DNA of 64,000 bases from Candidatus Nomurabacteria bacterium (GCA_026395955.1 JAPLXR010000004.1:3883-67882); one strand, 5' to 3'; shown: positions 15,927 through 21,737, counted from the first letter of the stretch. Numbers and translations are program-made. Notes: generated by a model from the letters alone, not told the origin.

Positions 15927-17879
15927 CTAGATAGCGTAATCAGAAAGTGTAACATCACCAGTTACGAAATCACCAAGATTTGATGAGTAGTAATTAGTAT
16001 TTGAATCATCACTTGCTGTACCCCAGTTTACTGAGTTAAGAGCTACATGGTAGAAACCATCAGAGTTTGTATGATCTGAGGCATCAAGAGCAAAGTTTAC
16101 AGTTAATGTAAATGTTCTTGAATCATTTGCGCCAACAAAGAATGCATCAACAGTATCATCTGTTGTAGCACCTGTAGCTGAAAGGATTCCAGTTGATGCT
16201 ACATATGTACCAGCTGCTGGTGCTGAATCAGTACCATTTTTGAATACACTGTAAGCATTTCCTTGTCCTGCACCTGTACCTGTACTATCTACTGTAGGCT
16301 TGTTTACATATAAATCTGTATCACCGAAATTAGATACCTTGTATTTAATAGTAAATGTACCACTATCAGGTGTTGTTGCTGGAGCTGTAGAAGAATGTAC
16401 TACAGCACCATCATTTGATGAAGAAACAAATTCTAGATTGATACCATCAGCAAAGAAGTTTTGAGTATTTCCTTGTGCTGTACCAACTCTGTTTCCTCCT
16501 GCAATAGCATCACCATTCGAATCTTCAACGTTTGAAGTTGCATAACTTACAAGCAAGTTTTCACCAGCAAGTAATGTTGCAGAAATCTTGTTAACTTTAG
16601 CGTATACATCAAAAGTTACTGTTTTTCCTGCAGCGATTTCTAAAGGATTATCAAGTGTGAATACATATGTATCATCACTAGATAATGTTTCATCGTTTGA
16701 AGCAATTTGTTCACCTAAAACCTTGATTGTAACTTCACTTGTAGCTTCAGATAATGTATCAGCTCCAGGAGTTGAAAGAGCAAGACTGATACTATTTACT
16801 GTCATTGCTGAACCAGTAGCCTTAAGTTTGAATTCATTCATCAATACACTTGTTGTAGTTGTTGAAGAAACTCTTACGTTACCAGCTGATGGCATTGAAC
16901 CTTTTGAGACTGTAAGTTTCAAATCTCCAGAAGCAAGACTATCAAAAGTTACTCCTGTATTTGTATTTGTACCATCTCTAGAAATTGAAGTAGTGTCACT
17001 CATAACCATTCCTGTTCCGTCCATCCAACGAGTTGAATCAACTGAAACAGTCCAGTCATTAGTTAAAATATCATTACTATCAATATTTGAAACTGCGGTT
17101 ATTGCTACATAGAAAGTTTGTTTATTTGAAACTCCTGCAGCTACAGTTGCACCTGTAAGTGAAATGTTTTTTGAGTAAGTTGTTCCAGATTTAACGAAAT
17201 CACTTATCAAAGCAGATCCTACTTTAGTAGAACCCATCCATACTGAAACTTCACTAGCATAACGATCGATTCTTGTTGAAGATCCATCTAGATCTGTGTT
17301 ATGGAATGAAACTTTAACATTGTTTACATTGATACTTGAACCAGCTGCTTGAGCCTTGAAAGCAAGTACTTTTGTAGCAACATCTCCTTCTTTTACTGAA
17401 CTATCAGTATCAGCTGTTGTAGCTGTGATTGTAAGATCACCTGCTGCACCTGAAAGAGAACCTGTTGTTGTTGTTCCTGGGTTAGCTGTACATGTGAATC
17501 CTGCTGGACAAGTAGCAGCAACAACTGGTGTTGTTGAAGTACATGTGAATCCTGCTGGACAAGTAGCTGAAGCTACTGGAGCTGCAGTACCTGCTAATGA
17601 AGCACGTGTAAGTGGACCTACGAATCCTGTTGAAGGGATACCGTGAGCTGTTTGGTAAGCTTTAACAGCAGCTAATGTGATATTTCCGAAATATCCTGTA
17701 GCTGGAGTAACAGCTAATTTTGTTTGAAGACAAGTAACGTCTGCTCCAGACATTGTTTGCTTTAAGTCCATTGAGATTGAACAATCAGCTGATGCCTTTG
17801 TACTTTTGAAAGTAACACCGACAACAACTAATGTAACAATCATTAAACCAAAAGCGATTGATTTTAATAATTTATTCAT
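15927..17879 (-). CDS. Secreted S-layer-like surface protein with peptidoglycan-binding domain
   Basis: Signal peptide; TGYFGNITLAAVKAYQ...TGFVGPLTRA PG-binding motif; two TCPAGFTC repeats; Ser/Thr-rich beta body; strongly biased codon usage. Confidence 0.75.
   Translation of the reverse strand: MNKLLKSIAFGLMIVTLVVVGVTFKSTKASADCSISMDLKQTMSGADVTCLQTKLAVTPATGYFGNITLAAVKAYQTAHGIPSTGFVGPLTRASLAGTAAPVASATCPAGFTCTSTTPVVAATCPAGFTCTANPGTTTTGSLSGAAGDLTITATTADTDSSVKEGDVATKVLAFKAQAAGSSINVNNVKVSFHNTDLDGSSTRIDRYASEVSVWMGSTKVGSALISDFVKSGTTYSKNISLTGATVAAGVSNKQTFYVAITAVSNIDSNDILTNDWTVSVDSTRWMDGTGMVMSDTTSISRDGTNTNTGVTFDSLASGDLKLTVSKGSMPSAGNVRVSSTTTTSVLMNEFKLKATGSAMTVNSISLALSTPGADTLSEATSEVTIKVLGEQIASNDETLSSDDTYVFTLDNPLEIAAGKTVTFDVYAKVNKISATLLAGENLLVSYATSNVEDSNGDAIAGGNRVGTAQGNTQNFFADGINLEFVSSSNDGAVVHSSTAPATTPDSGTFTIKYKVSNFGDTDLYVNKPTVDSTGTGAGQGNAYSVFKNGTDSAPAAGTYVASTGILSATGATTDDTVDAFFVGANDSRTFTLTVNFALDASDHTNSDGFYHVALNSVNWGTASDDSNTNYYSSNLGDFVTGDVTLSDYAI
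17488..17567. repeat. 29-bp intragenic direct repeat encoding ATCPAGFTC twice
   Basis: gtacatgtgaatcctgctggacaagtagc at 17488-17516 and 17539-17567. Confidence 0.9.
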
Positions 17880-18247
17880 AAAGTTATCTAATATCCCTAC
17901 ATCTGGTTCTTTATTTTTAATTTATAAAAATTAATAATGTAATAAAAAATTCAGAGTAAGTTTTTGTACGCCATTAATTAGTTTCGACAAAACCAAGGAC
18001 GTACATTTTTTCTATCACTTTTACTTGTTCCCTTTTTAATGGAATAAGGAAAAGTGGACAGATATAAACTAATCGAAAAACAATAAACTAAATCCAACAG
18101 AATTAAATTCTGTGAGATTTTTTTATTTATTTTTCAATGACCTTTCATTTCATTTATCTTGATATTCTTTCGACAAAATCTCAAAACAAATGATCGTAAG
18201 TGTATCAAAGTAATACGTAAAAATACGTGATACTCTGACACAATACT

Positions 18248-18276
18248 ATTATAATACTCGACTGTATAAACAGCAA
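18248..18276 (-). promoter_or_regulatory. Sigma70-type promoter for the S-layer-like gene (about 360-nt leader)
   Basis: TTGCTG-17 nt-TATAAT on the minus strand; DnaA box at 18285-18293. Confidence 0.65.
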
Positions 18277-18429
18277 ATATTATATGTGGATAACTAAGGC
18301 TTTTTGGCCAAAATCACCACTCCTATAGTATCGCATATTTTAAGCAAAAATGCAACTATGAGGAGTCAATATATATGACGAGATAGATGAGAAATTCTTA
18401 CAAAATTTTAAGACAGTTTCAAGGACATT

Positions 18430-19353
18430 TTACATGGACAAGAAGTATCGGGACCATCTCTTCTCTCCGGTCTTTTTTAGGACACTGTCCTTGACCATTG
18501 AGACCAATTCTCTTTGCAAAGTTTTCTCTCCACATGATACGATAGTTCCTATTTTTGTGTCCTTTATATCTTTGATAGTGAGTCCATTAGGAAAAACTTT
18601 TTTGTTTTCTTTTATTGCTTTAACTATGTCTTCCCTTCTATTCTTTTTAAGTAAATCGAAGGAAGATTTCTCCTCCCCCTTCGCTAAGGGGGAGGTTTGG
18701 TGGGGGTGTTTTGATTTCATGTCTGATAAAGCTTTCATTAAACTATGTCCGTTTTGTAGTCCGAGTCTAGTAGTTTGTATCTGTCTCTTAGTAGGGATTA
18801 ATGCTCCATGTCTCTTAAAGAGTTGTCCTTTAGAATTGTTTACATTACTCTCAGTGTTATCTTTTATTTCAGAGAAATCATTACTTTCAATATTTTCATT
18901 TTGTCCTAAACCAGTAAAAAATTCTGACAATGAAAGTTCATTACTATATGAGCTTTCTGTTACAGAATTATATAGTTGAGTGAATTCTTTTTTTAGAATA
19001 TTTTTATTCATTTCAGAGATCATGGACACAGTACTTGCGATGTCCAAGAAGTTCATAATTTCTGAAATTCTTCCTTTCATTACAGACACGAGCTGGTGAC
19101 CTTCCATAGGATTTTTGAGTGCCAAGATATTTATGTCTGAAATGATATTTGCACCAAGTGTCCTTAACTTATTTCTTATTGGTTCTTCCTTGTCCATTAC
19201 ATCTGTAACAATATATAGAGCCATAATAAGCTTATTTGTTTTTGGATATGGTATAGAGATGTCCTTTAAATCAATCTCAGTTCCAACCATATTTATATGG
19301 CCATTATCAATGTCTTTTTGACTGTCCTTGAGATTTTTATTTTCTGGTAACAT
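18430..19353 (-). CDS. Hypothetical protein with helical N-terminus and putative C-terminal winged HTH
   Basis: C-terminal LTIKDI...GEKTLQRELVSMVKDSVLKKTGEKRWSRY resembles a DeoR-type wHTH; start moved to 19353 (TATAAT 7 nt upstream). Confidence 0.65.
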   Translation of the reverse strand: MLPENKNLKDSQKDIDNGHINMVGTEIDLKDISIPYPKTNKLIMALYIVTDVMDKEEPIRNKLRTLGANIISDINILALKNPMEGHQLVSVMKGRISEIMNFLDIASTVSMISEMNKNILKKEFTQLYNSVTESSYSNELSLSEFFTGLGQNENIESNDFSEIKDNTESNVNNSKGQLFKRHGALIPTKRQIQTTRLGLQNGHSLMKALSDMKSKHPHQTSPLAKGEEKSSFDLLKKNRREDIVKAIKENKKVFPNGLTIKDIKDTKIGTIVSCGEKTLQRELVSMVKDSVLKKTGEKRWSRYFLSM

Positions 19354-19404
19354 GGTTTCAATTATATATAAAGGACAGATAAATGCAAGGGCGACAAGAT
19401 AAAT

Positions 19405-19529: not shown

Positions 19530-21737
19530 ATGGCAAAAAATGACAAAAATAAAAAAGAAAATTTTAAAGATAAGAAATCAAATAATATTGAAAAAAAGAA
19601 ATTAAAAAATGAAACTAAACATGGCATACTCGCCGTCGTTTTTTTTGTTTTAGCACTCTTCCTATTACTAGCAGGATTCAATTCTGCAGGACCTGCAGGA
19701 AAGTTTTTTAAAGAAATTTTTACATATCTTTTGGGAGTCGGTTATGCACTGTTACCTGTGCTCTTGGTAATGCTCGGATACTCTTTTGTTAAATCTGAAA
19801 AACCAGAAATAGGTATCAGTCGTGCACTTAGTTCTAGTTTGTTTTTACTCTCAGGATTAGGACTGTTTGATATCGCTTCTCGTAATCATGCTGGTGGAGT
19901 TTTAGGAGAAATAACTGCTGCTCCTTTCGTCGGACTTTTTGATGTTTATGCGAGTATTATTTTCCTCGGAGCAATACTAATAATTTCAATCTTGGTCATG
20001 TTCGATGCCAAGCCAATGTTGATGCCATATCTAGAAAAAATTTGGATGTTCCTAAGAGGTAAAAAATCTGAAAATGAAGATGATGAAGAATATGAAGAAC
20101 CAGTTAAAAAGATAGAAGTAGAAGATGATGAAGAGGAGGAAGTTCCAGAAAAAGTTATAGAGAAAAAGAAAGAAAAAATAAAAGATATTAAACCAAAAGA
20201 AGAGGAAGATTTACCTCCACCTGTCGGCGCTAGATACGTGTCTCATGCATACGTTCCTCCACCACTTTCACTCCTCGAAGAAGACAAAGGAAAACCAAAT
20301 ACAGGAGATATAAAAGCAAATGCAAATATTATAAAACGTACACTTCAAAATTTTGGTATCGAAGTTGAAATGGATGAGATCACAGTCGGACCCTCTATCA
20401 CTCGTTATGCTTTGAAACCAGCCGAAGGTATCAAACTCTCTCGTATCGTAGGATTACAAAGTGACCTCGCACTCGCACTCGCGGCACACCCTATCCGTAT
20501 CGAAGCTCCTATTCCCGGCAAGTCACTCGTCGGTATCGAAATTCCAAACAAAGTAAAATCAACAGTTGGACTCGCTACACTCCTCGCTGATGAAAAATTC
20601 CAAAATTCTGCAAAGCCACTCACTATCGCTCTCGGCCGTGGAATCTCTGGCAAGGCCACATTCGCAAACCTCGCAAAGATGCCACATGCTCTCATCGCTG
20701 GTACTACTGGATCTGGAAAATCTGTAACCATTCACTCTGTTATTACTTCCCTACTATATAGAAATGGACCAGACGATTTGAAATTTATCATGGTTGATCC
20801 GAAACGTGTCGAGTTAACTTTGTATAATAAAATTCCTCACCTCCTAACTCCTGTTATCACAGATGCGAAGAAAGCTATCCTCGCACTCAAATGGGCAGCA
20901 AAAGAAATGGATAGACGTTATGATATCCTCCAAGAAGAATCTGTGCGTGATATTAGTTCTTATCATGAGACAGTTTATCCAAAGCTCTTAAAAAATTATG
21001 AAAAAGCTCAAGACAAAGATGATGTCATGGCTAAAGTTCCAGAACGCATGCCATATATAGTAGTAATCATCGACGAGCTCGCAGATATTATGACTGCCTA
21101 CCCTCGTGAACTCGAGTCAGCTATCGTCCGCCTCGCCCAGATGTCTCGTGCTGTCGGTATTCACATCATCCTTTCTACTCAACGTCCTGAAGTAAACGTC
21201 ATTACAGGTCTGATTAAAGCAAACATTCCTGCTCGTGTCGCCCTCAAAGTGCAATCCGGTATCGACTCTCGTACTATTCTCGATGCTACAGGTGCTGAAA
21301 AACTTCTCGGTCAAGGAGACATGCTCTATTCTTCCGGTGAAGCTCAACCAGAACGTCTACAATCTGCTTATATCTCTGAAGGTGAAGTAAAGAAAGTTGT
21401 AAAATACCTCGCTGACGCTTATGTAGATGAAATATCAAATGAAATTTCATTATCTTCTGAAAATATTAGTCACGATAAAAGTATCTTTGACAGTAATCTA
21501 GAAGACCCAAACGAAGATACAGATGAAATGTACGAAGAAGCTCGTATTTGTGTAATGGAAGCCGGCAAAGCTTCAACTTCATATTTACAAAGAAAACTTA
21601 AACTCGGTTATGCTCGTGCAGCGAGACTAATGGATATGCTCGAAGAACGTGGAGTTATCGGTCCTGGTGATGGAGCAAAACCACGTGAAATATTAGAAAA
21701 GATAGAACATGATGAGAATGGAGATAATGTGATATAA
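19530..21737 (+). CDS. ftsK: DNA translocase FtsK/SpoIIIE
   Basis: N-terminal TMs, GTTGSGKS, IDELAD, STQRP, gamma domain SYLQRKLKLGYARAARLMD. Confidence 0.97.
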   Translation: MAKNDKNKKENFKDKKSNNIEKKKLKNETKHGILAVVFFVLALFLLLAGFNSAGPAGKFFKEIFTYLLGVGYALLPVLLVMLGYSFVKSEKPEIGISRALSSSLFLLSGLGLFDIASRNHAGGVLGEITAAPFVGLFDVYASIIFLGAILIISILVMFDAKPMLMPYLEKIWMFLRGKKSENEDDEEYEEPVKKIEVEDDEEEEVPEKVIEKKKEKIKDIKPKEEEDLPPPVGARYVSHAYVPPPLSLLEEDKGKPNTGDIKANANIIKRTLQNFGIEVEMDEITVGPSITRYALKPAEGIKLSRIVGLQSDLALALAAHPIRIEAPIPGKSLVGIEIPNKVKSTVGLATLLADEKFQNSAKPLTIALGRGISGKATFANLAKMPHALIAGTTGSGKSVTIHSVITSLLYRNGPDDLKFIMVDPKRVELTLYNKIPHLLTPVITDAKKAILALKWAAKEMDRRYDILQEESVRDISSYHETVYPKLLKNYEKAQDKDDVMAKVPERMPYIVVIIDELADIMTAYPRELESAIVRLAQMSRAVGIHIILSTQRPEVNVITGLIKANIPARVALKVQSGIDSRTILDATGAEKLLGQGDMLYSSGEAQPERLQSAYISEGEVKKVVKYLADAYVDEISNEISLSSENISHDKSIFDSNLEDPNEDTDEMYEEARICVMEAGKASTSYLQRKLKLGYARAARLMDMLEERGVIGPGDGAKPREILEKIEHDENGDNVI

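Follow-up and report, generated by a model that had tools for sequence, protein, structure and literature searches.

A Candidatus Nomurabacteria gene carrying an array of the DNA word TAWNGGACA that recurs around parS: a candidate self-repressing chromosome-binding protein

Background

Why should the gene of a hypothetical protein beside ftsK be crowded with copies of one short DNA motif? The question is raised by a locus of Candidatus Nomurabacteria in the window analysed here, a stretch of 64,000 nucleotides whose positions are counted from its first letter. A first-pass annotation had proposed that the encoded protein, here called X, coats its own gene and forms a centromere-like, iteron-like, nucleoid-organising or autoregulatory hub. 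We examined the motif in the window, in the rest of the genome and in relatives of X.

Results

The array is maintained as DNA

All 15 copies of GGACA/TGTCC and all 8 copies of the 7-mer AAGGACA/TGTCCTT described for the array were recovered from the window sequence, each at its reported position. The gene and its copies are as follows.

18430..19353, minus strand: gene X, 307 aa, with disordered N-tail, four-helix bundle, disordered linker and winged helix, holding 13 copies (ORF, database gene call, model)
18421..18491, no strand assigned: copies at or just past the 3' end of X, at 18423, at 18436 and in the inverted pair AGGACACTGTCCT, 18479-18491 (sequence)
18553..19327, no strand assigned: remaining intragenic copies at 18558, 18746, 18824, 18902, 19024, 19041, 19159, 19191, 19260 and 19323 (sequence, counts)

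The genome (699,333 bases on 10 contigs) contains 628 occurrences of GGACA/TGTCC, i.e. 0.90 per kb, close to the one per kb estimated beforehand. In a genome-wide sliding count on a 40-base grid the X array was the densest 960-base window (14 copies), and the next best elsewhere held 6. When the 307-codon ORF was re-coded 5,000 times with the codon usage of the genome, the 5-mer averaged 2.7 copies and never exceeded 9, against the 13 observed; for the 7-mer the mean was 0.9 and the maximum 5, against 6 observed. The copies lie on both strands and occupy five of the six strand/frame classes, as the claim of several frames implied.

Amino-acid repeats (KD, KGQ) or base composition might have produced the array incidentally. 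Many copies do coincide with KD and KG codons, and their density is higher in the floppy tail and linker (11-12 per kb) than in the bundle (5.4 per kb). The controls nevertheless refute this explanation, and its probability is practically nil: re-codings and synonymous shuffles are exceeded, copies occur on the reverse strand and in non-coding DNA, and the same word is found at parS. The constraint thus acts on the DNA rather than on the protein, as the first-pass annotation had supposed.

Orthologues gave the same picture in the codon-shuffle comparison; in each search the best-scoring 30 loci were analysed, and kin among them are not independent. Of the 30 family-level X genes (the 30 best-scoring loci, the window's own included and itself enriched; 67 of 81 genomes matched), 28 had more GGACA than their synonymous shuffles (p ≤ 0.02), and AAGGACA was the top de novo 7-mer of these loci (153 vs 41). 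Among 32 wider orthologues, counting one from G150 that belongs to another class (X homologue E 7e-103) and may be a misbinned contig, 23 were enriched over shuffles at p ≤ 0.05 and 9 were not significant; TAAAGGACA occurred in this set 63 times vs 10.5, spread over 29 genes. The G150 locus (L062, G150:C96) has a very close X homologue and the motif array on one contig, which is possibly misbinned or transferred.

The unit of the array proved longer than the 7-mer first taken for it. Flanking positions around GGACA in the 30 family-level genes give (T/C)(A/C)TAAAGGACA; because other orders use TATTGGACA, TAATGGACA and TATCGGACA, the full word is written TAWNGGACA. It is mostly TAAAGGACA and is not palindromic. 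Single changes within GGACA, AGACA excepted, were unenriched and several were depleted (AAAGGATA, 1 vs 9.6). In the 30 genes and the window, sites on both strands are spaced by 7 to 40 bases with no dominant period. The pair AGGACACTGTCCT, which had been singled out as a palindrome, is indeed exact but atypical, since only 7 inverted pairs with 6-7 bases spacing were found among 30 X genes; a palindromic dimer site as the rule was rejected for this reason.

Codon choice bears the imprint of the word: X uses AAAGGACA for 74 of 82 Lys-Gly-Gln/His tripeptides and cca for 19 of 21, compared with 30 of 108 in other ORFs of three genomes. Tandem pairs of the word were present in 104 of the 151 order genomes, the reversed control in none of them. 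Elsewhere in the phylum they stayed at background, with 14 of 201 genomes vs 13 of 201 for the control. A GC-rich palindrome, CCTCCCCCTT-CGCT-AAGGGGGAGG, with a third purine-rich arm was also seen, in frame in the X linker (18670-18709).

A copy lies on the X promoter, and the adjacent DnaA box belongs to the next gene

The likely start of X is ATG 19353, according to the database gene call of 307 aa and the starts of homologues, and the copy at 19373 therefore falls in the promoter.

19361..19388, minus strand: X promoter, -35 TTGCAT (19388-19383), 16-base spacer, -10 TATAAT (19366-19361) (sequence, orthologue layout)
19367..19377, plus strand: best-scoring copy TATAAAGGACA, which lies between -35 and -10 and touches the latter; predicted autorepression operator (sequence, orthologues)
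19530..21737, plus strand: ftsK, divergent from X (locus comparison)
15927..17879, minus strand: gene of a surface (S-layer-like) protein with a peptidoglycan-binding domain, downstream of X (locus comparison)
18248..18293, minus strand: surface-gene promoter, DnaA box 18285-18293, -35 TTGCTG 18276-18271, -10 TATAAT 18253-18248 (sequence, loci)

The word touches or overlaps the -10 TATAAT in 40 of 61 X orthologues, and promoter copies often flank TATAAT on both sides, as TGTCC-n-TATAATGGACA. An operator overlying the promoter is the established layout of an autorepressor; by this analogy X quite probably represses itself, and the autoregulatory role suggested for it gains support. The X mRNA is probably leaderless because the -10 lies only 7 bases before the ATG (19353-19366); the gap is about as short in close relatives.

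Where the upstream DNA sufficed for the comparison, the divergent arrangement with ftsK noted in the window recurred in all 28 family loci and all 31 wider ones; in other orders it was seen in 5 of 27. The DnaA box at 18285 is exact, and an exact box in the same orientation occurs within 600 bases past the X stop in 40 of 62 loci. Its distance to X is variable, and it always stands some 7-10 bases ahead of a TTGC-type -35 followed by TATAAT. For this reason the box belongs to the promoter of the surface gene and was rejected as a member of the array beside which it had been noted; the surface-layer gene is probably under DnaA control. Behind this promoter follows a leader of about 360 bases (17880-18247). 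Contigs of four RNA-library runs span 17535-18324 at 90-99% identity, which is weakly consistent with a transcribed leader; they leave X uncovered and are uninformative on its expression.

Protein X combines an Avd-type bundle with a winged helix

The predicted structure of X consists of two confident domains joined by a floppy linker of low confidence, which measures 41-111 residues (median 87) in 61 proteins.

18934..19248, minus strand: four-helix bundle, about residues 36-140, Avd/S23/Xcc0516 fold (model, fold comparison)
18436..18672, minus strand: winged helix-turn-helix spanning about residues 228-306, in which an EKTxQRE helix and a G(E/D)KRWxxY wing are conserved (HTH_DeoR, BlaI matches)

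Residues 29-141 matched Xcc0516 (2gsc) with Z 15.1 and rmsd 1.8 over 110 aligned residues; further matches of the bundle were Avd (4dwl, Z 14.2, rmsd 1.8 over 104; 8ub7_B, Z 14.4) and BT_0352 (2rld, Z 14.4). Helical bundles score high by chance, yet the top four matches all belong to the Avd/S23 family, and Foldseek gave E 9e-4 against 2gsc. At sequence level the relationship stays below the cut-off, both for Pfam PF05635 (2 of 46 members, E 0.052) and for the Avd model (2 of 46, E 0.045). Entry 2gsc comprises five chains, and we take the bundles of Avd and Xcc0516 to form pentameric rings; by analogy, the bundle of X is likely an oligomerisation hub.

The C-terminal winged-HTH-like domain read from the sequence was confirmed in the model and by HTH_DeoR matches at E ≤ 0.01 in 49 of 62 members, the window's own protein not being among them. 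BlaI (1p6r) matched weakly (E 0.0012), and Foldseek with the winged helix alone returned generic winged helices, none at E ≤ 0.001. Domain and fold searches gave neither a ParB match nor a ligand-sensing domain.

Homologues, where named, are hypothetical proteins of Nomurabacteria/Paceibacterota/Minisyncoccia (999 matches in one search, 5,560 representatives at E ≤ 0.001 in another). A profile search detected X in 141 of the order's 151 genomes. Restriction to the order, as a narrow profile suggested (5 of 201 in the phylum), was rejected when a wider profile found X in 51 of 81 class genomes, some matched by the head only. Plasmid and phage collections contained no match to X.

A second cluster surrounds parS

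The next-best AAGGACA window of the genome lies at 681-1640 of contig C1. It adjoins a DnaA box at 1521 and, at 1656, the sole perfect parS palindrome, in a setting formed by cca, tRNA-Gly, tRNA-Arg and a yraN-like gene (cca and yraN named from their translations). At parS loci of the family (30 of 46 relatives with a match) TAAAGGACA occurred 78 times in 83,857 bases, with 2.2 expected, and in 24 of 30 loci. It was found 38 times at parS in other families of the order (17 of 21 loci) and 4 times in other orders (2 of 26); the reversed word appeared once in each of the latter two sets. Two exact-word clusters, at the gene and at parS, were counted in four near-complete genomes: G006 (7+6 of 16 copies), G078 (4+5 of 10), G032 (5+4 of 13) and G041 (4+2 of 7). 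G075 has two exact-word clusters too, the parS link being counted for the other four only. Of 30 tandem-pair loci, 13 lay at parS/cca/yraN, 10 in X, 3 at valS/tsaD/the surface gene and 4 elsewhere.

Across the 46 loci that include yraN, sites bracket parS, with 59 located in the spacer, 46 within cca, 20 within yraN, 16 beyond and 6 elsewhere. One of them forms a composite with DnaA boxes, TGTGGATAA-nnn-TGTGTACAT-tgtt-TATAAAGGACA, in which the distance from DnaA box to GGACA is 31 bases; 21 of 31 loci of the family have this composite, as do 6 of 24 wider ones, and no locus from other orders (0 of 26) has it. In the CCA-adding enzyme (L056:2360-2417 and other cca near parS), KGQ-x-x-D-x-Y-KGQ is found where two copies 24 bases apart are coded, and the protein sequence seems shaped by DNA sites. 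TTGAC between paired sites was rejected as a -35, being coding sequence of cca. In 46 of the 52 loci of the order, and in most from other orders, the parS sites themselves cluster at the start of and within the yraN-like gene (G000:C1:876-2110, L068). They lie far from parAB; in G078 and G006 the distance is about 226-294 kb.

The idea of a centromere-like hub was therefore half right: a second cluster of the word surrounds a real parS, but the X gene itself is no centromere. Its distance to parS is 116-172 kb in the 7 genomes where a single contig carries both, its contig in the window genome has no parS match with ≤3 mismatches, and ParB is encoded separately, on another contig. Because of this distance, the irregular copies and the assignment of the DnaA box to the neighbour's promoter, the X gene was rejected as centromere or origin; the irregular spacing likewise speaks against the term iteron-like.

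Further sites were observed outside the two clusters. A third cluster in G324 and G366 lies in the spacer that separates valS from the gene of a large surface protein (L254:6230-6365, L255:8720-8836), also near the end of the surface gene by tsaD, and G326 has a pair at valS. This cluster and the 4 of 30 pair loci at other genes look like ordinary regulation. Lone near-perfect sites were seen after tRNA-Leu and in a small membrane-protein gene (G000:C3:74382 and 74570), and between an rsmE-like and a secreted-protein gene (G000:C9:85743).

Presence of the word follows X and its wing

Three genomes, G379 (one contig, 100%), G383 and G386, lack X, and ftsK there directly abuts the surface gene. 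They keep DnaA, ParB and ScpA, so that X is dispensable in at least three genomes with ParB and ScpA. None has a tandem pair of the word, and TAWNGGACA numbers at parS are 1, 0 and 0, respectively. In G386, 3 of 4 exact TAAAGGACA copies lie within 6 kb of parS, and AAAGACA variants occur in ftsK and at parS. In the same genome (L294:1025-3014) a yraN-like gene and parS immediately precede dnaN, and dnaA is located on a different contig; in G379, parS is 5 kb from dnaA.

Among homologues from other orders, 14 of 19 with the ..RW wing had at least 2 sites in gene plus leader and 5 of 19 had none, compared with 0 of 8 with another wing; genome-wide tandem pairs occurred in 16 of 19 vs 1 of 8. Fisher's p of 0.0006 for the wing comparison overstates the case, because related homologues do not count as independent and the orthology of the 8 is uncertain. 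These eight (L235, L241, L246-L249, L251, L252) have the same two domains with a different wing and no word, and may read other words; a de novo search per gene gave no alternative word.

The word could also be read by another protein, such as ParB via a secondary site, DnaA or a further factor, X then being a mere target. Clusters without a detected X point this way (tandem pairs in G438, G443 and G448, and 2 sites at parS in G282, 92% complete), as do the relic sites in G386. Yet ParB and DnaA persist in the three genomes in which both the gene and the clusters are gone, presence of the word tracks the wing of X, and two apparent exceptions, G285 and G350, which keep the clusters, were rejected as losses since they are assembly gaps at ftsK. 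We therefore consider a different binder very improbable; from this co-occurrence it is highly likely that X binds TAWNGGACA.

Transcription alone would explain part of the pattern

X could be purely a transcriptional looping repressor of itself and perhaps of ftsK, the cca/tRNA/yraN block and some surface genes; proximity to parS would then be incidental because parS lives at yraN. The operator on its own -10 and the DeoR-like head fit such a role, and E. coli DeoR offers a precedent for looping, between distant operators 300-600 bases apart (PMC8053113). The third cluster in a surface-gene spacer and the joint travelling of parS with yraN fit as well. On the other hand, sites lie on both sides of parS and deep inside the coding DNA of cca and yraN. 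By inspection the DnaA-box composite has no -35/-10 layout, unlike the surface-gene promoter, and X has no ligand-sensing domain. In other orders the word stays near parS amid new neighbours, yraN mostly travelling along, and in G434, G443, G452 and G479 it remains there although the neighbours other than yraN have changed. Since yraN mostly accompanies parS in other orders, the two are inseparable as the target. Altogether, a role confined to transcription appears rather unlikely, and that X has a role in segregation, not in transcription alone, is somewhat probable.

The parS cluster is probably not the replication origin

Alternatively, X could control replication, the parS locus being an origin or alternative origin opened by DnaA and X in the manner of iteron replicons, or containing sites like datA, DARS or crtS that time initiation when they are copied. 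The fixed 31 bases from DnaA box to site suit this explanation, and so do the sites inside the own gene of X, as in lambda O and RepC. In 4 of 6 X-bearing genomes the GC skew over all bases reaches its minimum closer to parS than to dnaA, with a flat stretch between the two.

The third-position keto skew, in contrast, has its minimum nearer dnaA in 5 of 6 X-bearing genomes and midway in one (for general guidance on skew see PMC7111523). In 4 of 8 genomes, a strict pattern search found tandem DnaA boxes, NTA (trio-like) repeats and an AT-rich tract between dnaA and dnaN, an element of the type described as the basal unwinding system in PMC8287927, and TAWNGGACA occurs only 0-1 times within 600 bases of dnaA in all 8 genomes. 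The irregular spacing of sites and the three genomes without X also count against replication control, which we judge distinctly unlikely. The parS locus as oriC is weakened by the dnaA-dnaN element without the word and by the keto skew; with skew evidence mixed, the parS cluster is probably an origin-proximal centromere and not oriC. The distance from dnaA to parS is 14-60 kb, median 34 (12 X-bearing genomes with both on one contig). In the window genome a likely oriC was seen at G000:C3:40810-41060 (L071), with similar elements in G041, G379 and G006.

Discussion

A model for X

Any explanation must accommodate the word, its selection at the DNA level, the two clusters, the domain layout, the co-loss of X with the clusters and the co-variation of wing and word, all of which are observed. 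We favour, with a probability of roughly 0.55, the view that X is a multivalent binder which represses its own gene and serves as an accessory centromere factor at parS together with DnaA and ParB. In this model the winged helix would read the non-palindromic TAWNGGACA, and the four-helix bundle would join several subunits, in a five-membered ring if X resembles Avd and Xcc0516. The floppy linker of 41-111 residues would let the heads reach sites of any spacing and orientation; we propose that X binds clusters and ignores lone sites because such long linkers can span any site geometry. Its first target would be its own promoter and coding sequence, where X would repress itself and the array would buffer free protein. 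The second would be the 2-kb region cca - tRNA-Gly - tRNA-Arg - parS - yraN, with one site 31 bases from the DnaA-box pair. There, X and DnaA might shape or bound the ParB-parS complex of a centromere that lies tens of kb from oriC.

A more far-reaching version, possible but doubtful, would make X a five-armed binder and third sequence-specific part of the centromere, which with DnaA licenses or tethers a parS moved 14-60 kb from oriC; the own-gene array, 116-172 kb further, would be a sink or a bridging point whose replication times the cycle. Two of the three X-less genomes (G379 and G386) have parS back near origin genes, which fits this version, with only two cases.

Comparison with known systems

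MatP/matS, MaoP/maoS, RefZ/RBM, RacA/ram, Noc and SlmA are sequence-specific chromosome organisers. Like them, X is confined to a lineage and has a DNA word of its own that is bound to particular regions of the chromosome. Macrodomain organisers have sites dispersed over hundreds of kb, however, whereas in single-contig genomes X has two, sometimes three, clusters of 1-3 kb, one of them its own gene; Foldseek, fold and profile searches gave no sequence or fold match between X and any of these proteins. Lambda O and RepC of repABC have binding sites within the initiator's own gene, as is the case for the presumed binder X. Unlike them, X is a chromosomal core gene with no plasmid or phage match, irregular spacing and a location away from the oriC-like element. 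Iteron-binding initiators use regularly spaced direct repeats, whereas the sites of X are irregular.

With Avd, S23 (23S_rRNA_IVP) and Xcc0516, X shares the fold of residues 29-141 (Z 14-15), but its bundle is fused to a linker and a winged helix and stays below the Pfam cut-off. The Avd of retroelements lies beside a reverse transcriptase and a template repeat, while X is flanked by ftsK (59 of 59 order loci with enough DNA) and the surface gene. ParB and other Par centromere binders have a palindromic parS and an ATPase partner next door; X has no ParB match, and its word is not palindromic.

DeoR-type looping repressors, together with repressors whose auxiliary operators lie within transcribed DNA, are alike in the winged helix, the promoter operator, several distant sites and the oligomer inferred for X. 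The DeoR family, however, has an N-terminal head and a C-terminal sugar-phosphate-binding domain, whereas X has a C-terminal head and an Avd-type bundle, a non-palindromic 9-mer site in clusters of 5-15, and parS as a second target. Initiators that bind at a centromere are described for Caulobacter (DnaA at parS) and Vibrio (RctB at parS2), where, as here, an initiator element is embedded in the centromere region (PMC6399470); parS lies 14-60 kb from dnaA in our 12 genomes instead of about 8 kb. The present case would differ further by implying a third, dedicated protein with its own word in fixed phase to DnaA boxes. X thus fails at least one defining feature each of the DeoR, Avd, ParB, iteron-initiator and macrodomain-organiser families; judged from its sequence, it would work like a self-repressing, sequence-specific chromosome-binding protein. 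Main texts in open-access PMC and bioRxiv contained no description of X or its word.

Conclusions

A nearly universal hypothetical protein of a large group of ultra-small bacteria thereby gains, from sequence alone, a predicted DNA site, predicted target loci and a predicted mechanism. Codons and even residues of X and of the CCA enzyme have been bent to keep sites in a 0.7 Mb genome, which argues for strong selection. If the model is true, a ring with flexible DNA-reading arms that senses site density would be a new design, and the Avd/S23 fold would gain a role outside retroelements. If X acts at parS, it would add a new layer to ParABS and link DnaA to segregation, in bacteria whose cell cycle has hardly been studied.
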